A DNA stretch of 11,801 nucleotides from Gemmatimonadota bacterium (lineage in GTDB: Bacteria > Latescibacterota > UBA2968 > UBA8231), in NCBI GenBank assembly GCA_038153405.1, contig JAYOYH010000078.1, forward strand, positions 1 to 11,801, given 5' to 3'. The notes beneath the pieces are model-generated. The model worked only from the letters and a program-made list of their open reading frames with translations. It was not told where the DNA came from and made no database searches. A program made the position numbers and the translations under genes. Shown piece after piece: positions 143 through 11,801 of the stretch. Each line of letters opens with the position of its first letter. Within the stretch, counting starts at the first letter, position 1.

Positions 143-1597
143 ATGGACGATATTCCACTGCACTACCACCTGATGCACCCCGGCGGCGAGAGCCTGCCCG
201 GCGATCCCAACGCCGCGTTCTATCTGGACGGCACCTATCACCTGCACTATATCCTGCGCCATCCTTGGCGCGACGGTACGTCCTTCTGCTTTGTACACGT
301 GACGAGCCTCGACCTGCTGCACTGGACCTGGCAGCCGACGAAGCTACAGCCGGCCTTCACCGGTCACGGCATGTTCAGCGGCACCGGCTTTCTCACGGCA
401 GAAGAATGGCCCGCCGTCATTTATCACGGCCAGGCTTCCGGGCGCAACCAGATTGCCCTGGCCTGCGATCGCCAGCTATCGGCCTGGGAAGAGCCCTACC
501 CCGTTGAAGTGCAAAATCCCGACGGCAGTGCGGCGCAGATGCAGCATTGGGATCCCGACTGCTTTCGCATCGGCGATACCTACTACGCCCTTTCCGGCGG
601 GGCAAAACCTCCGGTATTCAAGTCGAAAGACCTCAAAAACTGGGAGTATATCGGCGACTTTATGCGCGGCGACATGCCGGACGTAGCCATTGGGGAAGAC
701 ATCTCCTGCCCCAATTTTTTCAAGCTCGGCAGCCGGTGGATGCTGCTGTGTATTAGCCATCCCCTGGGCTGTCGCTACTATATCGGCGACTGGGATGCGA
801 AGGCCGAGCAGTTTGTGCCGCAGCGGCACGGTCGCATGAACTGGCGCCGCGACGACCAGCCGATATATGGCCTGTTTAAACGCACCGACTTCTTTGCTCC
901 CGAGAGCGTGCTAACGGCCGATGGACGCCGCGTCATGTGGGCGTGGCTGACTTCGGCCGGCCCCGACGGCGTCGTGCTCAACAAGACCGTACAGTCGCTG
1001 CCGCGCGAGCTGAGCCTTGCCGAAGATGACACCCTGCGCATCCGACCTCTGCGCGAGTTGGAGACGCTGCGCGCCGACCGGTTCGAGGAGCGCGACATTG
1101 CAATCGACCAGCCCATAGAGGGGCACGGCGACGCCGTGCCGCCCACCGAGGCGCCCGCCTTGAGGCAGCTGGCAGTGCTGAGGAGCGATGCCGTCGAGTT
1201 GCGCATCCGTATTGCGCGCCGGCAGGCCGAGCGCAAGCTCTTCGGCCTCGTGCTCTTTGCCGAAGACGGGCAGGGACTGCCCATTGTCTTCAGGCCCGAC
1301 AGCGGCACCGTGCGGCTAGGCGACGGCGAGGCGCCGTTTGCCGTGGCCGATCTGGACGAGGGCGAAGACCTCGAGCTGCGCATCTTCGTCGATCATTACT
1401 TGGTAGAAGTCTTTGTCAGCGACCGGCAGGCCCTCGTCGCGGCCTACCCAGCCTACGCGGGCAAGCGGACCCTGGCCGCCTTTAGCGTTGGCCAATCCAC
1501 GCAGATCGAGTCGCTCGAAATGTGGAAGCTCGCGCCGACCAACGCGGGTTTTTGGGCGGCGCGAGAAAACCGGGTGTGGGCACCGGACGAAGCGTGA
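143..1597 (+). CDS. Glycoside hydrolase family 32-like protein (5-bladed propeller plus C-terminal beta-sandwich) with atypical catalytic motifs
   Basis: 484 aa. GH32 hallmarks: YHLMHP, GDPNA (NDPNG-like), YHLHY, HVTSLDLLHW, MFSGT, WDP (RDP-like), SCPNFF (ECP-like), FFAPES, GRRVMWAW, SLPREL, and LRIFVDHYLVEVF in the C-terminal domain. No signal peptide. SD present. Confidence 0.9.
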   Translation: MDDIPLHYHLMHPGGESLPGDPNAAFYLDGTYHLHYILRHPWRDGTSFCFVHVTSLDLLHWTWQPTKLQPAFTGHGMFSGTGFLTAEEWPAVIYHGQASGRNQIALACDRQLSAWEEPYPVEVQNPDGSAAQMQHWDPDCFRIGDTYYALSGGAKPPVFKSKDLKNWEYIGDFMRGDMPDVAIGEDISCPNFFKLGSRWMLLCISHPLGCRYYIGDWDAKAEQFVPQRHGRMNWRRDDQPIYGLFKRTDFFAPESVLTADGRRVMWAWLTSAGPDGVVLNKTVQSLPRELSLAEDDTLRIRPLRELETLRADRFEERDIAIDQPIEGHGDAVPPTEAPALRQLAVLRSDAVELRIRIARRQAERKLFGLVLFAEDGQGLPIVFRPDSGTVRLGDGEAPFAVADLDEGEDLELRIFVDHYLVEVFVSDRQALVAAYPAYAGKRTLAAFSVGQSTQIESLEMWKLAPTNAGFWAARENRVWAPDEA

Positions 1598-1887
1598 GCG
1601 GCGATCTCCCGCAGCGTCAGCCCCTCGGGCATCTCTTCAAAAAAATACGGCATGGGCCCCGACTGAAACCCCGGCGTGAAGCGCTCGCCTTCGCCCTGCA
1701 GCTGTGCGTCAAGCCAGGCAAAGCGCGTCCACAGCGCGCGCTGGCGATCGACCAGCGTCTCAAAGGCCGCGCGCAGTAGATCTAGGCGGCCGGGCGGCAC
1801 AATATCCTCGACGACGACAAAACCATCGCGCAGCAACCGGTCTCCATTGAGCGCATTGAGCGGCACGCCCGCTGTGTACTCATTCAC
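1453..1887 (-). pseudogene. Short phytanoyl-CoA dioxygenase (PhyH)-like remnant, probably internally deleted
   Basis: GTG at 1887 has a strong SD (GAGGAGGT, 1893-1900). The N-terminus LLRDGFVVVEDIVPPGRLDLLRAAFE matches the PhyH N-terminal pattern. There is no HxD...H iron motif, the ORF is only 144 aa, and the last ~48 codons overlap the GH32 3' end in antisense. Confidence 0.6.
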
Positions 1888-1931: not shown

Positions 1932-3227
1932 CTACGCCCTTCCCGCGCGCGAAAAAATGGTCGCGCCGGCGACAATCCCCACAAAACTAACGGCAAAAAA
2001 GGGCGTATACGGGCCGACGGGCAAGCCCAACAGCTCTGTGCGCAAGCCGCCGAGCTGATCCAAGCTCCAACCGGTTAATAGTGGACTGAGGACGGCGGCC
2101 ATTTGCGTCCACGTGTAGAACAGTGCCATGTACTCCGTCTTCTTTTCTACCGGCACGAGGTCGACGTTGAGCTGCCGGTCCTGACCGATGCTGAAGCCAA
2201 TGGACCCGACGCCCCACAGCGCAGCGGCGACGGCCGCCCAAAAGACACCGACGTCGCTGTGGCGCGGTATCGCCATCCAGATCAGCGGCAGCACGCCCAT
2301 GGCCAGCACGCCGCCCAGCAAGACGAGTCGCCCGCTGAATCGATCGGCCAGCCAGCCCCAGCCGTAGCTAGAGACCAAGGTGCCGATCAGCAGGAAGGTC
2401 TGCATCTGCACCACGGTGCCCGCGTCGAGGCCAACTTCGTCCTTCAAGTACAGTGGGATAAACGCGCCCCAGGCGTGCGTGGCCAGCGACATGATGACCA
2501 GACCCCACAGGAAACGCCGGAAGGGTGCATCGCGCAGGGCCGCGCGCAAAAGTGAAAAGTGGGCGCGCTGAGAAACGGCTTGCGGCTGTGGATCGCCGCC
2601 GCCGATTGGCATTTTTACCAACACGGAGAGCAGGCCAAAAGACGCGGCCAGCACAACGAGCATCTGGTAGGCGCGCAGGTCGGCGCCATCCGATAGGAAG
2701 TGACCCATCCACGCGATCACCCCCAGCCCAAAAACGGTGGAGACGATGTTGTTAACGGCCGAAAACTGACCGCGCACGCGCCGCGGCACAAATTCGTAGG
2801 CCCATGGATAGAGGGCCGTCTCGGCAATGATCCGCAGCACCCCGAACGTTCCCATCACCGCCGCCGTGAAAATCATAACCCCGACCAGACCGGCCTGGTG
2901 CAGCACGATGGGACAGACCGCTAGCAGGGCAAAGACGAATTTGCGCGCGCTGTAAAAGACGAGATAGGTGCGTTTACATCCCCAGCGCGCGGCGAGGGGC
3001 GCGACAAAGAGGGCCAGCGGTCCCGGCAGAAAGATCAGCGCATTGAGCAGGCCGATATGGGTTTTGGGTAAGCCCAACTCGTCGTAGTAGAGCACGAGGA
3101 CGGAGCCCAGGTTGCCGTACACGCTGCCCAACGCCGCGCTGAGCAACGCCCACGGCAGGCGGCTAATCTTGGCGCGGTCCTCGTCCGCTGCGCCGTCGGA
3201 TGGGAGCGACGACGGGGCGTCGTTCAC
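1932..3227 (-). CDS. Major facilitator superfamily transporter
   Basis: 431 aa with about 12 hydrophobic segments in two halves. Motif-A-like loops PLAARWGCKR and GWLADRFSGR. The GTG start overlaps the upstream TGA stop (GTGA, 3224-3227). Confidence 0.9.
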   Translation of the reverse strand: MNDAPSSLPSDGAADEDRAKISRLPWALLSAALGSVYGNLGSVLVLYYDELGLPKTHIGLLNALIFLPGPLALFVAPLAARWGCKRTYLVFYSARKFVFALLAVCPIVLHQAGLVGVMIFTAAVMGTFGVLRIIAETALYPWAYEFVPRRVRGQFSAVNNIVSTVFGLGVIAWMGHFLSDGADLRAYQMLVVLAASFGLLSVLVKMPIGGGDPQPQAVSQRAHFSLLRAALRDAPFRRFLWGLVIMSLATHAWGAFIPLYLKDEVGLDAGTVVQMQTFLLIGTLVSSYGWGWLADRFSGRLVLLGGVLAMGVLPLIWMAIPRHSDVGVFWAAVAAALWGVGSIGFSIGQDRQLNVDLVPVEKKTEYMALFYTWTQMAAVLSPLLTGWSLDQLGGLRTELLGLPVGPYTPFFAVSFVGIVAGATIFSRAGRA

Positions 3228-4414
3228 TCGATGACCATACGCGCCGAACGGGCCACGCTATCCCAATCCGGCTCGACGACGGGTCGGTCACTCCAGGCGA
3301 TGCGGGCAACGCCGTCGCCCACCACGAGCCGCCCGCGACAGTTCTGCTCTTCTTCGGGCGGCTCGGGCTGCAGGCCCATAAACGCCTCAAAGAGTGGATC
3401 GTTGGCCACGCCCAAGATCACGTGCGGATCGCCGCCGTGCACCGGCACGCCCATGCTCTCAGCCATCTGCGCCACTTTGAGCTGTCCGGTGATACCGATT
3501 CCGCGCTGGCGCACGATATCGGTGGCGCCCAGCGCCACGTAGGGCGCCGCATTAAAGGGCTGGCCGCCGATGGCACCGATCCACTCCAGCGCTAGCACAG
3601 GTAGGTCAACCGCTTTGCACAGCGTCTGCAGGCCGAGGATATCGTAGTCCTGCAGCGGCTCTTCGATCCACTCGTAATTATACTTCTCCAGCACGCGGCT
3701 GATGCGAATAGCCTCTTCGCAGGTGTAGGACTCGACCGGATCGTGCAGCAGGAGAAAGTCGTCGCCCATCGCCGCGCGCAGCTCGCGCGCCATTTCGGCG
3801 TTGCCCTCTACGCCGCGGTACCAGTGGTCCTTGCCGCCGATAAAGCCCTGCGCGCGCTTGTCCATGGCGCTCTCGACAATCGCGTCGATCGTGCGCCCGC
3901 CAATCAGCCCATAGGCCGGCACGCTTTCCCGCGCACCGCCCAACAGCTTGTAGATAGGCTGTCGCGCGTGGCGACTGGCCAAGTCCCACAGCATGCGATC
4001 GATGGTATCGAGCGGCTGGCGGCCCGTGTAGAAAAAGCGCTGCGCGTACCACATCCGCTGCCAGATGTATTCGCGATCAAAGGCGTCCACGCCCACAATC
4101 ATCGGCATGTAGCGAGCCAGCGCCAGCTTGGCATTCCACTCCAGCTCCGAGGCGCTGTAACCGCTGCCCCAATCGCCGTAGGCGTCGAGATCGCCGTCCG
4201 TGTGCAGGCGCAGCTGGAGCTTGTACATCGGCACGGGCTCCGGCGTGGCATATTCGATGTGCAGATCGGGTTCGGGGCCCATACCCTCGCAGTGGGTAAA
4301 CAAACCCGACAGGCCGGGTGGCACTTTGTCGATGCCGCCGCGGTCGGCGTAGCGCACCTGGCGCACCTGCGGCTCGGTCTCACTCAGATAGAAGGTCGCT
4401 TGGGTAATCTTCAT
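3224..4414 (-). CDS. Mandelate racemase/muconate lactonizing enzyme family (enolase superfamily) enzyme, probably a dehydratase or isomerase; substrate unknown
   Basis: 396 aa. Capping-domain motif IDRMLWDLASRHARQPIYKLLGG. K195-x-H197 motif. Metal ligands D225 (LHDP), E251 (WIEEP) and E277 (LALEW) have the 26/26 spacing of mandelate racemase D195/E221/E247. H326 (VHG) present. SD GGAGG at 4424-4428. Confidence 0.92.
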   Translation of the reverse strand: MKITQATFYLSETEPQVRQVRYADRGGIDKVPPGLSGLFTHCEGMGPEPDLHIEYATPEPVPMYKLQLRLHTDGDLDAYGDWGSGYSASELEWNAKLALARYMPMIVGVDAFDREYIWQRMWYAQRFFYTGRQPLDTIDRMLWDLASRHARQPIYKLLGGARESVPAYGLIGGRTIDAIVESAMDKRAQGFIGGKDHWYRGVEGNAEMARELRAAMGDDFLLLHDPVESYTCEEAIRISRVLEKYNYEWIEEPLQDYDILGLQTLCKAVDLPVLALEWIGAIGGQPFNAAPYVALGATDIVRQRGIGITGQLKVAQMAESMGVPVHGGDPHVILGVANDPLFEAFMGLQPEPPEEEQNCRGRLVVGDGVARIAWSDRPVVEPDWDSVARSARMVIE

Positions 4415-5385
4415 GCGTGGCCACCTCCGATTAGACGCAGTCCGAGGCCGGGCTCGGTCGGCAGCTGCAGGTGCCCCTGGCTAATAGTTGGGAGTTCAAT
4501 GCCTTCGGGCACAGAGCCGACGGCCAGCAGTTCGGCGTTGCGCACTGCCCCCATCAGGTGGGCTGCCGCGTGCAGGCTTCCGTGCAGCTCGCAGTTCATC
4601 TGCAGCGCCTCGGCTCCGCGCGCCAGCTTGAGCGCTTCGGTGATGCCGCCGCCGTCGGGTAGTACCATTCGAACGCGGTCGACGGCCCGCGTAGTCAGCG
4701 CGCGCGTGCCGGCCAAAATGGAGTCGCCCATAAAGGCGCCGGCCACCACCGGCAGCGACAGCGCGTCGGACAGCTTCTGCAGGGCGGTCACGTCGCCGTC
4801 GCGCAGCGGCTCGGCAAACCAGTGCCCGTCGATCGCTTCCAGCGCGCGGCCGATGCGCAGCGCCCCTTCCAGGTCAAAGCGCTGACCGCCGTCGCACAGG
4901 ATGCGAAACGAGGCACCGGCCTCGCGCCTGAGTGCGCGCAGCAGGTCTGGGGTCGCCTCGGCGCACACGGCCTGCAAACCATAACCAAAGGCACCCTCCT
5001 CGCGCGCGGCCAGCGCCTCGCCCACTACGACATCGATATCGGTTGTCTTTGAGCCGACGCGGTAGATCGGTATCCGATCGCGAAAGCCGCCGATAGCGCG
5101 AAACAGCGGCAAACCCTGCGCCTTGGCAAACAGGTCCCACAGAGCGATATCGACGTGGCCCCAGGAAGCGGGCGTGAGACCGGCCTGACGACCTGCTTCT
5201 CGACAGGCGCGCCAGAGGCGGTCGCGCTCCCATACAGAACCGCCGGACAGCACGGGCTCGTAGGCATCGACGATGGTCTGGGCCAGGGGCGCGGGCACGC
5301 CGGGCGCCCAGCCTTCGGTTCCGTCGTCCACGCACAGCCGCAGCAGGCCGTCTTCTATCGCATGGGTGATTCGAATCAGCTGCAT
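4411..5385 (-). CDS. Enolase-superfamily (MR/MLE-like) protein with a degenerate active site, probable pseudoenzyme
   Basis: 324 aa. Retains VDIALWDLFAKAQGLPLFRAIGGFRDRIP, GGGITEALKLA, ELHG and LPTEPGLG. Ligand positions read D165/A191/A217, and KxH is replaced by G-L-Q. The stop overlaps the next start (ATGA, 4411-4414). Confidence 0.88.
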   Translation of the reverse strand: MQLIRITHAIEDGLLRLCVDDGTEGWAPGVPAPLAQTIVDAYEPVLSGGSVWERDRLWRACREAGRQAGLTPASWGHVDIALWDLFAKAQGLPLFRAIGGFRDRIPIYRVGSKTTDIDVVVGEALAAREEGAFGYGLQAVCAEATPDLLRALRREAGASFRILCDGGQRFDLEGALRIGRALEAIDGHWFAEPLRDGDVTALQKLSDALSLPVVAGAFMGDSILAGTRALTTRAVDRVRMVLPDGGGITEALKLARGAEALQMNCELHGSLHAAAHLMGAVRNAELLAVGSVPEGIELPTISQGHLQLPTEPGLGLRLIGGGHA

Positions 5386-5402: not shown

Positions 5403-6317
5403 TTAGCGTGGAGACCGAGCGCAGGCAAGTTCCCCACGCATTCTTGTTGCGTAGCGCTCGGCCATAGCCATAGCCAATATACCGGCGATGATCAGCGCAC
5501 CGCCACCGGCTATATGCCAGCCCAGCGGCTCGCCCAGCACCTGGTTGGCCAAGGTAATTTGGGCAATGGGCGTGGCCGTCGTAATGGAACCGGCCAACGT
5601 GGCACTAAGCCGTTTCATGCCCTCGGAAACGAGCGTGAACGACAGCCCGGTACCCACTACGCCCAGCACGACCAACGCCAGCAGGTCTCGCCCAGCGGGC
5701 GGCGCGTGCAGCTGGAAAGACGCGGCGGAAAGCGCACCGATGATCAGGGCGCCAATCCCCATCATCGGCGCGAGAATCGCCCCGCTCGGCGCGTACGGCG
5801 CCAGCGCCTTATTGGCCAGCGCGTAGAGGCCCCAGCCCAAACCCGAAAAGAGCATCAGCGCATTCCCCCGCATATAGTTGGGCGCCAACAGCTCGCTCAC
5901 GTCACCCCCCCACACCACCACCGCAGCAATGCCGGCTAGCACCAGCCCTATGCCGGCGATCTTGCCCAGGCCGATGTGCTCGCCCAGCACGACGACGGCC
6001 AGCAGGGTCAAGGCGACGTATTGCACCTGCACGATCAGCACGCCGACGCTGGCCGTCGTATAGCTGAGCGAGAGCGCGTAGAGCGCGTAGTTCAGGCCGA
6101 TCCCCAAGCCACCCACTAAGTGCCAGCGCGACCAGACGATCGACCGCGCACTGTCGCCGCGCGCATACAGCAGGGCTAGGGCAAAGCCCGCCCCCTGCGC
6201 CGAACGCAGAAACGCAATGGTAAACGGGTCGAACACGGCCAAGAGCTGTTTGATCAAAATGGGCACCATGCTCCACAGGACGACGACGCCAACCATGCAC
6301 GCTATGCCAATCCCCAC
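5403..6317 (-). CDS. DMT/EamA family transporter
   Basis: About 10 hydrophobic segments in two EamA-like repeats (FDPFTIAFLR, LSYTTAS, VLGEHI, GNALMLFSGLGWGLY, VLGEPL). Start revised from TTG 6380 to the in-frame GTG 6317, which has GGAGG (6325-6329) 7 nt upstream; 304 aa. Confidence 0.9.
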   Translation of the reverse strand: MGIGIACMVGVVVLWSMVPILIKQLLAVFDPFTIAFLRSAQGAGFALALLYARGDSARSIVWSRWHLVGGLGIGLNYALYALSLSYTTASVGVLIVQVQYVALTLLAVVVLGEHIGLGKIAGIGLVLAGIAAVVVWGGDVSELLAPNYMRGNALMLFSGLGWGLYALANKALAPYAPSGAILAPMMGIGALIIGALSAASFQLHAPPAGRDLLALVVLGVVGTGLSFTLVSEGMKRLSATLAGSITTATPIAQITLANQVLGEPLGWHIAGGGALIIAGILAMAMAERYATRMRGELACARSPR

Positions 6318-6482
6318 GCTGTTCCCTCCCCCTCGATAGATGGGCACCCACTGATCAATGCCCACCGCAAAGCTAGCCAAATCCCCCCCGATCGCGCAAA
6401 GGCAATGGGCGCAATGGCGAAAAACGGCGGCTTCAATAACATTAATAGAGACCGGATCCGCGCCCTAGCCGAGGAGCTCTAT

Positions 6483-7028
6483 ATGCAACGCGCACCGAAT
6501 CGAACGTCCCATGCCTCGCTGCGATCTAGCCGATGGATCCGCGCACGATCCTACTGGATCGGCCTGATCGCACTGGTCTTGTTTGGCTGCGGCCGAGACG
6601 ATGCAACCGGTCCGAGCTACGACCACCTGCCCGAGCGCTACCGCGCCCTAGCCAAGACGTTTGACGCGCAGCAGGAGCGCTGGCGCGATAGCAAACTCCA
6701 ATCGTACCAGTATACCTATCAGCGCACGTGTTTCTGCGAGCCCGACTGGATACGCCCGGTCGTCATTGACGTGGTCAACAACCGCATTGAGCGCATCGTC
6801 TACGCCGACGACGGGGCACCGGTCGATTCGACCTATTGGGCAAGTTACCATACAGTCGACGGGCTCTTTGCCCTTATCGACAGCGCTCTAGCCAGAGACG
6901 CGGCCCAAATTACGGTGCAATTTGACGAGGCGCTCGGCTATCCCACCCAGCTGTATATTGACGAAGACCTGGGCATCGCCGACGAAGAGTTGCGCATCGC
7001 GGCATCGAATATGCACCCCCTGCCCTAA
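6483..7028 (+). CDS. DUF6174-like lipoprotein
   Basis: Start revised to ATG 6483 (GAGGAG at 6471-6476); 181 aa. An Arg-rich n-region and hydrophobic stretch end in lipobox LFG-C (Cys codon 6588-6590). The pattern W..YQYTYQRTCFC..P..V..TVDGLF..I..FD..GYP..D..DEE is recognised as DUF6174. Confidence 0.8.
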   Translation: MQRAPNRTSHASLRSSRWIRARSYWIGLIALVLFGCGRDDATGPSYDHLPERYRALAKTFDAQQERWRDSKLQSYQYTYQRTCFCEPDWIRPVVIDVVNNRIERIVYADDGAPVDSTYWASYHTVDGLFALIDSALARDAAQITVQFDEALGYPTQLYIDEDLGIADEELRIAASNMHPLP

Positions 7029-7310: not shown

Positions 7311-8132
7311 ATGCCATTGCACACCCCCTTACAGGAACAGGCGGACGAACAGTTGGCCTATCTGCGCACTGCGCTGCGCACGCACGGCGTCTACGGTGCG
7401 CTCAATACGCTGGACGATATACGCTCCTTTATGGAACTGCACGTCTTTGCCGTGTGGGACTTTATGTCGCTGCTCAAGTCGCTGCAGTCGACCATTACCT
7501 GTGTCCGCGTTCCCTGGACGCCCAGTCCACATCGCTCGGCCGCCCGACTCATCAACGAGATCGTCCACGGTGAAGAGAGCGACATCGATGCCTACGGCGC
7601 ATCCAAGAGCCACTTTGAAATGTACTTAGATGCCATGGATGAAATCGGCGCCGACGCGCAGCCCATCCGGCGCTTCATAGCCGCTCTACAGGATGGATAC
7701 TCCGTTGAACAGGCGTTGACGACGTGCTCTATAGATTCGGCGGCCGCCCATTTTGTGCGCGCGACGTTTTCCTATATCGATAGCGGCAAACCGCACGTGG
7801 TAGGCGCAGCCTTCACGCTGGGGCGCGAAGAGATCATACCCGATATGTTTCTCGAGATTTTAGCGCAGTCCGGCGCGCGCGACGGACGTTTCGGCCAACT
7901 CGTCTACTACCTAGAGCGCCACGTCGAGCTGGACGGCGACACGCACGGCCCGCTGGCCCTGCAGATGCTCGACGAGCTGTGCGGCAGCGATCCCGTGCGC
8001 ACGCAAGAAGCCCTGGCCGCTGCCGAAGCGGCACTGCACGCGCGCATCAAGCTGTGGGACGGCATTGCCGAGCGCTTCGTTGGAACCCCTGCCGACACCG
8101 CAGCAAGCGACGCACTGCTAGCCATGGCTTAG
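7311..8132 (+). CDS. DUF3050 family protein (heme-oxygenase-like fold, putative di-iron enzyme)
   Basis: 273 aa with FMELHVFAVWDFMSLLKSLQ, TCVRVPWTP, RLINEIVHGEESD, SHFEMYLDAM, FTLGREEIIPDMF and YYLERHVELDGDTHGP, all characteristic of DUF3050. Confidence 0.9.
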   Translation: MPLHTPLQEQADEQLAYLRTALRTHGVYGALNTLDDIRSFMELHVFAVWDFMSLLKSLQSTITCVRVPWTPSPHRSAARLINEIVHGEESDIDAYGASKSHFEMYLDAMDEIGADAQPIRRFIAALQDGYSVEQALTTCSIDSAAAHFVRATFSYIDSGKPHVVGAAFTLGREEIIPDMFLEILAQSGARDGRFGQLVYYLERHVELDGDTHGPLALQMLDELCGSDPVRTQEALAAAEAALHARIKLWDGIAERFVGTPADTAASDALLAMA

Positions 8133-8150: not shown

Positions 8151-11100
8151 TCAGCGAGTGGAGTAGTCGATTTGTTCGTAGTAAATCCAGCACAGGGAAG
8201 TCATGTAGCCGAGGTGATCCGGATTCATGCTCGACGCCGCTTCGACGTAGCGGGCGGCCTGTTCAAAATCGCCCAACCCGGCGTAGCAATAGCCGATTAG
8301 ATACGTAGCCAACTCCTTCCACTGGCCAGAGATCAGCGGCAGGTGCGTCAGCGCCTCGGAAAACTGCTCGGCCTCTATATAGGCCATGGCCATGATCAAT
8401 CGGCGTGCGTCATCGGTCGGGTCGGCCAGCAGCGGGCGAATGTATGCGCGGTAGAAATAGTCGTCGCGCATCGCCTCAAACTGTTTGAAGTTGGCAGCCG
8501 CCTTGTCGCGCAGCAGGTCGCCGTCCGGCAGTTCCGGCGGATCGGTCTCCTGCAACGCTCCGTAGGGATAGTCGCGCCAAGCGTCGGCGACGACCACCAC
8601 GTTGCCGGGCACGCGCACGTCGACCCCTTCCAAGATTTTAGCACCCAACTTCCACGCATCCGTAAAGAGTCGGCCCTCGCCTAGCACAGTGACCTCGACC
8701 GGCACCCACAGCCGCCCGGCGTGTTCGACAAAGAGCGCTTCGCTTAGCTGCGTCCCCAGCTTTCTATTGGGGCTGAGGCCCGAGTCGAACATCATGAGGA
8801 TGTGTCCGGGAACGTCTACCAGCGCGGTGGAGATGCGCACATTTTCTAGCAGCGCGCAAAATAGTGCCGTGTTGTCGTCGCAGTCGCCCAGCCGAGAATG
8901 CATTAGCTCAGCCGGATATTGGATGTGGTCGATGGCCGCCGCATTCTCGCGCGCCATCTGGAAGGGCGTGTTGGCATCGGCGGCGTAGCGCACGCCCAGC
9001 GCATTGAGCCCTTCAAACATCAGCATCGCCTGCGGTATATGACCCCACGAATCGCCGCGCAGCCCGAAGTCGCCCAGCGCGGACAGCATGCTGCGGGCAA
9101 CGTGCGCGACGGCCGGATCATCCGGCGTAACAAAGGCGGCGGCCCGCGCAATCGAGTCCCAGTTGAGCATGCCCTTGCCGTGCACCGTGATTGCGCGGCT
9201 CTCTTCGATGGAGACCGTCTGCGCACCTACGGAGTAGGACAGTTTGATCTCGGCATCCCACGGCTGATGGCCGACCACCTGCAGCAGCGCGTTGTCCAAT
9301 ACGGCGTGAATGGGCACCGTGATCTGCGCGTCGGCCGGCAGCGTTAGGCTCTTTTCAGCTGGCCGCTTCATTAGCTCGGGCAGATAGTACTGCAGCGTCG
9401 CCTCGACGGGGATTTCGTTCTTGTTAAACAGCTGCACCGTGGCGACCGGGCGAATGGCATAGGACTTGTAGAACGAAGCGTAGACGTCCTCTGTCTGCAC
9501 GGAGCTGATGCCGATGGAAGAGGCCCCCGGCACGTAGATCACTTCAAAGTCGACGCGCGCCGGCTGCCGCGAATAGTTAAACGCCCTGTCAATCGCCTTC
9601 ACTTCAAAAGCGTAGGTGCCGCTGGGCAGGTCGTCGTAGTAGACGGCGTTATCCCGGGTAAAGCGCCATGCCTCGTCGTAGCCGACCAGGCGGTAGGCAA
9701 ACTGCATGAGCTTGCGCCGCGTCTGGTAGCTCATGCCCTTGAAGTTGATCGCGATGCGCTGCTGGGTCGTGGGCACTTGGATGGCAGTGCCCGGCACGTA
9801 GACCTTGTCGGCGACGACGGAGGAAATCAGCACGGCCGGATCGCTGTACTCGCTCCGCAGGCGCGTGACGCCCATGCCCGTCAGAAACCAGACGTCGCCG
9901 CCCTGCGATTCTACGATGGAAACGACGAGATTGTCGTTGAGACCGTCGCGTTTTAACAGCTCCTGGGTGGTCGCCCCATCGTAGCGAATAACGCCGTCGT
10001 CGGTGGCCAACCAAACGAGGCCGTCGCGCGCCTGCGCCACCGCGCGTACGCGGCCGTAGGACAGGCCGCTGCCGCCCTGCCAATCGGCGAGGACACCGTC
10101 GCGCATCAGGCTGATGCCCCGATCCGTGACGATCCACAGCGTGCCGTCGGCCGTCTCGTACAGCGCCTGCACGGCGTTGCCTACGAGGCCATCGCGCTGG
10201 GTAAAGGTGCGAAACGCTGCGCCGTCGTACTGGCTGATGCCGCGCAGCGTGGCAATCCACAGCGTGCCGTCGGCAGCGACCAGCACATCGTCGATCCAAT
10301 TGCTCGGCAGTCCCTCATCGGTCGAGTAGTTGGTAAAGGCCTGGCCGTCGTAGGCGCTGAGGCCGTCGGCCGTGCCGATCCACAGCATGCCGCGCTCGTC
10401 CTCGACGACCTTCTGCAGGTCGTTGCTAGGCAAGCCGTCGGCCGTCGAGAAGACGCGAAATTCCCCGCCGCTGTACTGCAGCAGGCCGTCGGAAGTAGCC
10501 AACCATATCGCCCCGCGGCGATCCTGCACAACGGAACGCACAAAGCTCGAGTCGACCAGCGTTGAGCGCGTCTGGGGCGTGCGCTGGGCGAGTGAATCGC
10601 TCTGCCCCAACAAGGTCCGTTTGTCAAAGCGCTGCGCCGTGCCGCGGTGGTAGCGGACGAGGCCGTCGTTGGTGCCGATCCACACCTGGTCCCCGTCGGC
10701 GACAAAGAGGCGCTCCACGGCGACCGAGTCGCCCGCTGCGCCTAAGTCAACGCGCTCCACCGCCCCGTCGCGCACGACGCGCAGGCCGTCGGTCGTGCCC
10801 AACCAAAGGGTGCCGGCGCCGTCTTCGACCAGCGCCGTGGTCCTGTCAGCGGCTAGCTGTCCGTTGGAAAGCGTGGTAAATATAAAGCCATCGTAGCGCC
10901 GCAGGCCCTCGTCGGTGCCGACCCACATCTGGCTGATACCATCGTGGTAGAGCGAGCGGATGACCCGGTCACCCGCATCGTCGGCCACCAACATGGGCTG
11001 CATCGCGCCGTCGTCTATCGTATACAGTCCGGTCGTCGAGCCCACCCAGATCTTGGCCTGCGCGTCCTCGGCAATGCAGGTGATTTCGGCGGGCCCGGGT

Positions 11101-11801
11101 GCGTCGGTCGGCGCCACCCGCGTCACGCGCCCCGCGCGCATGTAAAAGGCGCCCTGATCCTTCGTGCCGACCCACAGCGCACCGTCTGAGGCGACATACA
11201 GCGCCGTAATATTGCCGCTGGGCAGGCCCCCCTCTTCTACTGTGTAGTTGGCAAATTCCTCGCCGTCGTAGGTGGCCAGACCGCGGCTGGTGGCGATCCA
11301 TATCAACCCGTCCCTATCCTGCACAACGGCGCGAACATTAGAGCCAAACCCCGTGCTTATGCGCTCAAACGAGCGGCCGTCAAATTCCGAGATGCCGCCC
11401 TGCGTGCCGATCCAGAGCCGACCCTGGCCATCTTCAAAGAATGTGCTGACCCAGTCACCGGCTAGCCCATCAACGGTCGTGTAGGTGATGATCTCGTCGC
11501 CGCGCTGGCGACTGACGCCGGAGGACGTGCCGATCCACACTTCCCCGGTAGCGGTCTGGTAGGTGCCGCTGACCTCGTTGCCGGCCAGACCGTTGCCGGC
11601 GGCCAGCGTGGTAAACGACAGCCCGTCGAACACGCTCACTCCGCCTGCCGTGCCGAGCCACATCACGCCGGTGCTGTCCCTGCGGATTGAGTTGACGCGA
11701 TTGTCGGCCAGGCCGTCGTGCATATTGTACAGGTACCACGCCCCGACCTGCTGCCCGCTGCCGGCACTAGTGACGGGCAGGACCGGCAGGGTCTGCCGGA
11801 T
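8151..11801 (-). CDS. Large multidomain protein (5' partial): two-component-regulator-type propeller repeats + Y_Y_Y + beta-rich linker + transglutaminase-like domain + TPR
   Basis: The frame stays open upstream of ATG 11723 to the window edge (IRQTLPVLPVTSAGSGQQVGAWYLYNMHDGL...), so the true start probably lies outside. 15 W-[ILVF]-x-[TS] blade motifs with DGL..N.V linkers. YRLVGYDEAW...YDDLPSGTYAFEVKA (Y_Y_Y). GDCDD / PGHI / VPVEVT. C-terminal LGY-like TPR helices (YLIGYCYAGLGDFEQAARYVEAASSMNP). Confidence 0.9.
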   Translation of the reverse strand: MRQTLPVLPVTSAGSGQQVGAWYLYNMHDGLADNRVNSIRRDSTGVMWLGTAGGVSVFDGLSFTTLAAGNGLAGNEVSGTYQTATGEVWIGTSSGVSRQRGDEIITYTTVDGLAGDWVSTFFEDGQGRLWIGTQGGISEFDGRSFERISTGFGSNVRAVVQDRDGLIWIATSRGLATYDGEEFANYTVEEGGLPSGNITALYVASDGALWVGTKDQGAFYMRAGRVTRVAPTDAPGPAEITCIAEDAQAKIWVGSTTGLYTIDDGAMQPMLVADDAGDRVIRSLYHDGISQMWVGTDEGLRRYDGFIFTTLSNGQLAADRTTALVEDGAGTLWLGTTDGLRVVRDGAVERVDLGAAGDSVAVERLFVADGDQVWIGTNDGLVRYHRGTAQRFDKRTLLGQSDSLAQRTPQTRSTLVDSSFVRSVVQDRRGAIWLATSDGLLQYSGGEFRVFSTADGLPSNDLQKVVEDERGMLWIGTADGLSAYDGQAFTNYSTDEGLPSNWIDDVLVAADGTLWIATLRGISQYDGAAFRTFTQRDGLVGNAVQALYETADGTLWIVTDRGISLMRDGVLADWQGGSGLSYGRVRAVAQARDGLVWLATDDGVIRYDGATTQELLKRDGLNDNLVVSIVESQGGDVWFLTGMGVTRLRSEYSDPAVLISSVVADKVYVPGTAIQVPTTQQRIAINFKGMSYQTRRKLMQFAYRLVGYDEAWRFTRDNAVYYDDLPSGTYAFEVKAIDRAFNYSRQPARVDFEVIYVPGASSIGISSVQTEDVYASFYKSYAIRPVATVQLFNKNEIPVEATLQYYLPELMKRPAEKSLTLPADAQITVPIHAVLDNALLQVVGHQPWDAEIKLSYSVGAQTVSIEESRAITVHGKGMLNWDSIARAAAFVTPDDPAVAHVARSMLSALGDFGLRGDSWGHIPQAMLMFEGLNALGVRYAADANTPFQMARENAAAIDHIQYPAELMHSRLGDCDDNTALFCALLENVRISTALVDVPGHILMMFDSGLSPNRKLGTQLSEALFVEHAGRLWVPVEVTVLGEGRLFTDAWKLGAKILEGVDVRVPGNVVVVADAWRDYPYGALQETDPPELPDGDLLRDKAAANFKQFEAMRDDYFYRAYIRPLLADPTDDARRLIMAMAYIEAEQFSEALTHLPLISGQWKELATYLIGYCYAGLGDFEQAARYVEAASSMNPDHLGYMTSLCWIYYEQIDYSTR
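9860..11750 (-). repeat. Protein-level tandem repeats (~42 aa beta-propeller blades, 15 visible)
   Basis: Recurring unit: F..YT..DGL..N.V..I..D..G.LWIGT..G.S.YDG. At the DNA level it appears as repeated GTGCCGATCCA / GCCGTCGTAG words on the + strand. Boundaries are approximate. Confidence 0.85.

Follow-up and report, generated by a model that had tools for sequence, protein, structure and literature searches.

Why should a bacterium keep, directly upstream of the gene for a seemingly complete enzyme, a homologue stripped of its catalytic residues? The question is raised by contig JAYOYH010000078.1 of a Gemmatimonadota bacterium (assembly GCA_038153405.1; Latescibacterota in GTDB), analysed here over 11,801 nt (the window), in which two minus-strand genes overlap end to start: P1 (4411..5385, 324 aa) and P2 (3224..4414, 396 aa). 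An initial annotation had read them as a pseudo-enolase and an active enolase, the former a maintained non-catalytic subunit. "Enolase" was a misnomer: both proteins belong to the mandelate racemase (MR) subgroup, and in Pfam and NCBIfam they matched solely MR/MLE-type families and no glycolytic enolase family. The idea of maintenance rather than random decay was borne out. P1 is a conserved, catalytically stripped protein under purifying selection that co-occurs with P2 and lies next to it, and dead P1s descend from P1s carrying KDH and D/E/E. P1 probably serves P2 as a structural or folding partner in a mixed oligomer.

The active sites of P2 and P1

P2 has a K195-D-H197 motif (K195 at 3830–3832), the acidic Mg2+ ligands D225, E251 and E277 on strands 3, 4 and 5, R302, H326, and E343 in an LFE on strand 8. 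A strand-2 KxK or KxH motif and a strand-7 His are motifs of the MR subgroup. Across 120 homologues the catalytic residues of P2 were invariant or nearly so: K195, H197 and H326 did not vary, D225 and E251 were found in 120/120 and E277 in at least 90%. P2 has the capping domain and (beta/alpha)7beta barrel of the superfamily, matching both Pfam MR_MLE_N and MR_MLE_C. The MR subgroup has a His-Asp dyad with a strand-6 Asp; P2 is without this Asp and has R302-Q-R304 at the position, where PDB 1RVK likewise has Arg and no Asp. H326 aligned to the 1RVK His over a two-residue gap, an equivalence of alignment only, spatial positions not having been compared.

By sequence and by structure, the best solved relative of both P1 and P2 was Agrobacterium AGR_L_2751 (PDB 1RVK, 4HCD and 4HCH), an MR-subgroup protein whose 4HCH entry is titled D-glucarate dehydratase. 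P2 aligned to its KxH, D/E/E, strand-6 Arg and strand-7 His, but identity to the window proteins was 26–27%, AGR_L_2751 has one chain type, P1 has no site, and P2 has a longer cap loop, no PGLG motif and its His326 two residues early in the strand-7 motif. The substrate of AGR_L_2751 is not transferable to P2. No cut-off of the NCBIfam equivalogs TalGalD, ManD, RhamD, GalD and AraD was reached (best scores 102 and 90 bits vs 500). The MR subgroup is reported to hold many acid-sugar dehydratases (PMC7246345), and in the superfamily Mg2+ and the capping domain are described as governing chemistry and specificity (PMC9795676). P2 is predicted to be a Mg2+-dependent sugar-acid dehydratase or isomerase, the nearest structures and the neighbouring genes pointing to a sugar acid as its substrate.

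P2 is a structurally odd chain. It carries an insert of ~45 residues at the position of the 20s loop, its loops after strands 6 and 7 are shortened, and the C-terminal PGLG motif was present in 0/120 P2s vs 57/57 P1s and 54/67 paralogues of the genome, a stand-alone sister family retaining it too. The P2 model (mean pLDDT ~93, the predicted local distance difference test score) superposed on 4HCH with Z 31.3 and a root-mean-square deviation (rmsd) of 4.1 Å over 328 residues, a poorer fit to solved structures than that of P1 (pLDDT 93.5; Z 38.1, rmsd 1.9 Å, 323 aligned to 4HCH).

P1 combines this canonical fold, PGLG included, with a stripped site. G136-L137-Q138 (4972–4980) replaces KxH, the metal-ligand positions hold D165 (4891–4893), A191 (4813–4815) and A217 (4735–4737) at the same 26/26 spacing as in P2, and strand 8 has L286-L287-A288 with no Glu. 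The 20s loop is missing, strand 1 (residues 2–9) passing by a short turn into strand 2 (14–19) in the AlphaFold model. Every residue cited by the initial annotation was present as stated, as were the missing loop, a reading frame open over all 324 aa and the P1/P2 junction (4411..4428, minus strand), with a GGAGG (4428–4424) 9 nt ahead of the P2 start codon and an ATGA stop/start overlap (4414–4411). Pfam MR_MLE_C was matched by P1, with MR_MLE_N just below the curated cut-off. As a control, the 67 MR/MLE-like open reading frames (ORFs) of the genome were aligned; one row was misaligned, and among the 66 alignable only P1 had Ala at the second metal ligand. P1 thus falls outside the catalytic members, being without the full Mg2+ ligand set and the general base, and the Glu of the third ligand was found in 0/67 degenerate orthologues. 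H268 stands at the position of the 1RVK strand-7 His and was present in just 2 of 35 close orthologues. R256 was conserved in 67/67 degenerate P1s vs 6% of 65 genome paralogues, and R56 and F101 were likewise conserved in dead P1s beside fold residues; to judge from this pattern, the three, with the fold residues, are a candidate interface. The genome (G000) holds ~67–72 MR/MLE-like paralogues in 4.9 Mb; a comparable MR/MLE-type expansion has been reported for SAR202 group I (PMC6946804).

P1 and P2 are 31% identical and have different nearest relatives, stand-alone cap-less proteins for P1 and a stand-alone long-capped family for P2, indicating that the pair is old; a recent tandem duplication is ruled out. 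The cap-less P1 family made up about a dozen top clusters among 1.84 billion representatives. A stand-alone sister family (L094, L095, L109 and L110) is also without the 20s loop, keeps KDH/D/E/E and has an N-terminal extension. One of its genes (L094) precedes an Amidohydro_2 gene, and matches at its score level occurred in seven genomes, every one of which also had P1 and P2.

Conservation of the pair and loss of the P1 site

The 168 genomes of the phylum were searched with P2 and with a P1 alignment, P2 orthologues being full-length matches at E < 1e-130, to which one gene divided between two contigs was added, and P1 orthologues being matches at E < 1e-112, together with fragments at contig edges. 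Both genes were found in 60 genomes and neither in 106, with P1 only in one (G133) and P2 only in one (G135); in these two, 75–77% complete, the gene lay at a contig end. P1 was immediately upstream of P2 in 56 of the 61 genomes with P2, the remainder having one intervening gene (1), an unlinked P1 (3) or a cut-off contig (1), and 58 of 59 junctions were at most 134 nt. A further 73 loci came from metagenomes and in part repeat those of the genomes; nor are related genomes independent of one another. P1 was upstream in 46 of these loci, downstream (order reversed) in 3 and absent in 12, and 12 were too short, two of them reaching 400–550 nt upstream with no P1 match. The conserved unit was the P1–P2 pair alone, the flanking genes changing. 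P1 and P2 distances were correlated in a mirror-tree comparison (Spearman 0.59, 56 pairs), as expected for any linked genes, and this was not counted as support.

The initial annotation had taken translational coupling to mean a ratio of about 1:1. This argument is weak, since only 16 of 59 junctions have the 4-nt overlap, and P2 overlaps the following transporter gene by a GTGA of the same kind, indicating that such overlaps are ordinary packing with nothing special to say on stoichiometry.

Retention of the ligands and KxH in orthologues of P1, which that annotation had named as counting against its reading, was seen in part of the family. At 35 of the 61 genome P1 loci the site is degenerate; the other 26 keep K-D-H, D/E/E, the strand-6 Arg and the strand-8 Glu. 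Among 88 non-redundant P1 proteins, a set biased toward relatives of the window, 21 were intact and 67 degenerate. The 20s loop was absent in all 88, and none of the 21 intact P1s had the strand-7 His, so that these too may have only partial activity. A tree (quick search) was built from 51 of the 88 P1s and four outgroup rows; its 35 degenerate rows formed one clade (SH-aLRT 97) with one change of state, indicating that an ancestral second site was lost and the gene kept. Loss began with the third metal ligand and the KxH His and went on lineage by lineage for the other residues. Independent losses were considered, and one alternative grouping, chosen after seeing the trees, was rejected (approximately unbiased test, p 0.00015). 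The P2 tree hints at independent losses, the partners of L077, L154, L159 and L168 falling outside the main clade, and long branches could be pulling dead forms together in the P1 tree.

Selection was measured as the ratio of nonsynonymous to synonymous substitution rates (dN/dS) by pairwise counting with Jukes-Cantor correction, the pairs not being independent. Within the genus of the window it was 0.15–0.23 for P1 (6/6 pairs) vs 0.02–0.07 for P2, and in genus g14 the medians were 0.21 (230 pairs) and 0.08. Intact P1s evolve at about the P2 rate (medians 0.08–0.16 vs 0.07–0.14). Constraint on P1 was relaxed upon death of its site and is still far below neutrality. No internal stop was found among the P1 matches of the 168 genomes, and dead P1s down to 35% identity stay full-length at 35 genome loci. 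P1 and P2 occur together in 60 of the 62 genomes that have either; this, their usual adjacency and a dN/dS below 1 support P1 as a maintained, non-catalytic paralogue.

The role of P1 beside P2

The ancestral unit would have been an oligomer of both chains, each with its own kind of site; one clade would then have dropped the P1 site and kept the chain because P2 would need P1 to fold or assemble. The likeliest contact would set P1–P1 dimers against P2–P2 dimers without exchange of active-site loops; a chaperone-like contact is the alternative. Both the contact and the dependence of P2 on P1, like the P2 substrate, are what we infer from the comparisons above and below.

Several observations weigh against such a dependence. 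P2 had no P1 within ~2.5 kb in 12 of the 61 informative metagenome loci, and eight of these lone P2s form one clade, whose sequence clusters bear Chloroflexota names; these P2s, too, are without PGLG. Since one cluster of cap-less P1s includes a Chloroflexota member, they may belong to unlinked pairs. Additional P2 copies with no P1 to themselves were found in L086 and L088, and in family f9 a single intact-site P1 precedes a tandem array of four P2 paralogues whose intergenic leaders are similar (L087:4030–10421, L089:4252–10640); a strict 1:1 ratio therefore does not hold throughout. Nor is the ATGA overlap conserved; an in-frame TAG interrupts one metagenome P1 (L137), and co-inheritance is expected of adjacent genes in any operon. 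The initial annotation had held that an active enzyme commonly found alone would speak against a partner. P2 does occur without an adjacent P1 at the metagenome loci just given, set against the 60 of 62 genomes that have both genes. Intact-site orthologues and lone P2s alter the partner idea rather than remove it, the dead state being derived within an older two-gene unit.

P1 might instead stand alone, binding a ligand or acting as a regulator in the catabolic pathway of P2 (as a sensor, a buffer of substrate or a transient activator), and form no stable complex with it. That would account for co-occurrence, for unlinked copies and for gene ratios that vary, and remnants of the pocket are seen by lineage (R239 and E266 in the clade of the window, K/D/D/H/E in g14). 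However, these remnants differ among lineages and the cap loop is absent throughout, indicating that no common binding site is conserved in P1; fold and helix residues are conserved instead, and we regard a stand-alone role as unlikely.

In MR-type dimers a loop of the capping domain enters the partner's pocket, and a cap-less P1 and a long-capped P2 could in principle swap parts, P1 interdigitating its loop into the P2 site of a P1–P2 dimer. The anatomy is complementary in this sense, R66 of the P1 loop is present in 28 of 35 members of the window clade, and some P2 cap residues relax where P1 is dead (F39 from 1.00 to 0.75, T40 from 1.00 to 0.79). Comparison of 49 non-redundant pairs gave the reverse of what loop donation predicts: the P1 loop (DRFxYLPHxVRG) was near-invariant in the 21 pairs with an intact P1 site but collapsed in the 28 degenerate ones, whereas the P2 loop (QRFxYTGR) was invariant in both. 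Decay of the P1 loop together with the P1 site means that the loop belongs to a site of P1's own type, and this speaks for dimers of like chains joined higher up, or for a chaperone-like contact, rather than for swapped sites. P1 probably does not complete the P2 active site, and an exchange of parts is improbable.

A P1 that is still an enzyme, of some metal-independent chemistry, is less probable again: the confident canonical fold and purifying selection would suit it, but residues at the KxH positions vary freely (9 and 12 kinds among 35 sequences), and the old catalytic columns have not been replaced by any new set of invariant polar residues. Slow decay of a pseudogene carried by the operon is largely refuted and scarcely credible, for although P1 dN/dS in the dead clade exceeds the P2 value by a factor of 2.4–5 and L137 has its stop, the ratio is far below 1, dead P1s have diverged to 35% identity at full length, and the PhyH-like dioxygenase gene beyond the pair is internally deleted in this very genome, indicating that useless DNA gets lost here.

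A structural or folding partner has a precedent. In the metformin hydrolase MetCaCb, adjacent genes encode enzyme and pseudoenzyme, the dead chain being reported to improve solubility and to be required for activity, and CdgAB and DnhAB are named as similar cases (PMC11271267). P1 and P2 are of this kind in gene anatomy, as a homologous pair, conserved together, in which one chain has no catalytic site and the gene of a metal enzyme lies beside that of a metal-free homologue. The dead MetCaCb chain is described as binding and solubilising its partner; MetCaCb belongs to the ureohydrolase superfamily, and direct duplication is proposed for it, unlike the distantly related P1 and P2 with their distinct nearest relatives and surviving intact-site P1s. 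A weaker parallel is E. coli GudX/GlucDRP beside GudD, tandem enolase-superfamily paralogues of which one is weakly active; GudX/GlucDRP is of the GlucD subgroup and keeps its metal ligands, unlike P1. In the literature searched there was no paper on GudX/GlucDRP beside GudD and no enolase-superfamily pseudo-subunit; most subscription primary papers lay outside that search, so absence from print is not established.

The pairing of pseudoenzyme P1 with enzyme P2 is real and conserved, and its evolutionary stages can be seen across the family. Pseudoenzyme partners as such are already established in bacteria, and the surprise is moderate. Enolase-superfamily enzymes, however, are treated as homo-oligomers and screened gene by gene, and were P2 to depend on P1, about one third of the phylum's genomes would carry a family that fails single-gene screens. 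The natural series of intact-site, partly stripped and fully stripped P1s offers a way to test how entrenchment of a subunit proceeds once its catalysis is gone. More tentatively, the pair might prove to be the first obligate hetero-oligomer of the MR subgroup, caught in mid-evolution, in which a cap-less, once-active subunit has turned into a pure scaffold on which a PGLG-less catalytic chain depends, each stage of the passage from two sites to one being still represented in living genomes.

Flanking genes and other features of the window

An MFS transporter gene (1932..3227, minus strand) follows P2, its GTGA overlapping the P2 stop (3224–3227), and is retained there chiefly in that branch of the dead-P1 clade to which the window belongs. 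Upstream of the pair lies an EamA/DMT transporter gene (5403..6380, minus strand), which adjoins the pair in close relatives only; its true start is probably downstream of the annotated 6380, at a GTG near ~6290. Across the family the flanking genes are often sugar-catabolic (Gfo/Idh/MocA and SDR dehydrogenases, UxuA, aldolases, GH32, GH38 and sugar ABC parts), and no single pathway emerged from the neighbours of the pair; one scan of them covered 35 of 36 picked ORFs. A conserved protein of ~460 aa with no Pfam match is encoded directly downstream of P2 at four g18 loci (e.g. L063:1593–2990, L052:11108–12475) and has two homologues in the window genome (contigs C75 and C71).

A promoter scan gave 0 sigma-70 sites vs 0.9 expected, and a terminator scan 5 terminator-like sites vs 4.0 expected. 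Three metatranscriptomes had short, shallow contigs over P1 (4632–5018; word shares 0.07–0.10), one of them also touching the 3′ end of P2; carry-over of DNA is possible, and neither the scans nor these contigs were counted as evidence.

The PhyH-like remnant (1453–1887, minus strand) is a frame of 144 aa with an in-frame internal deletion, the intact gene encoding 406 aa in a related locus (L050:7378–8598). There it is followed by a gene of 303 aa, in place of which the window has a converging GH32 gene. On the plus strand lie a DUF6174 gene (6405–7028) and a DUF3050 (heme-oxygenase-like) gene (7311–8132). The last part of the window (8151–11801, minus strand) encodes a large beta-propeller (Reg_prop) and Y_Y_Y protein, residues 795–1017 of which weakly match the anti-phage protein ProA. 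Its C-terminal end is not a histidine kinase and consists of tetratricopeptide repeats and a domain with a CDD motif, which we take to be transglutaminase-like.

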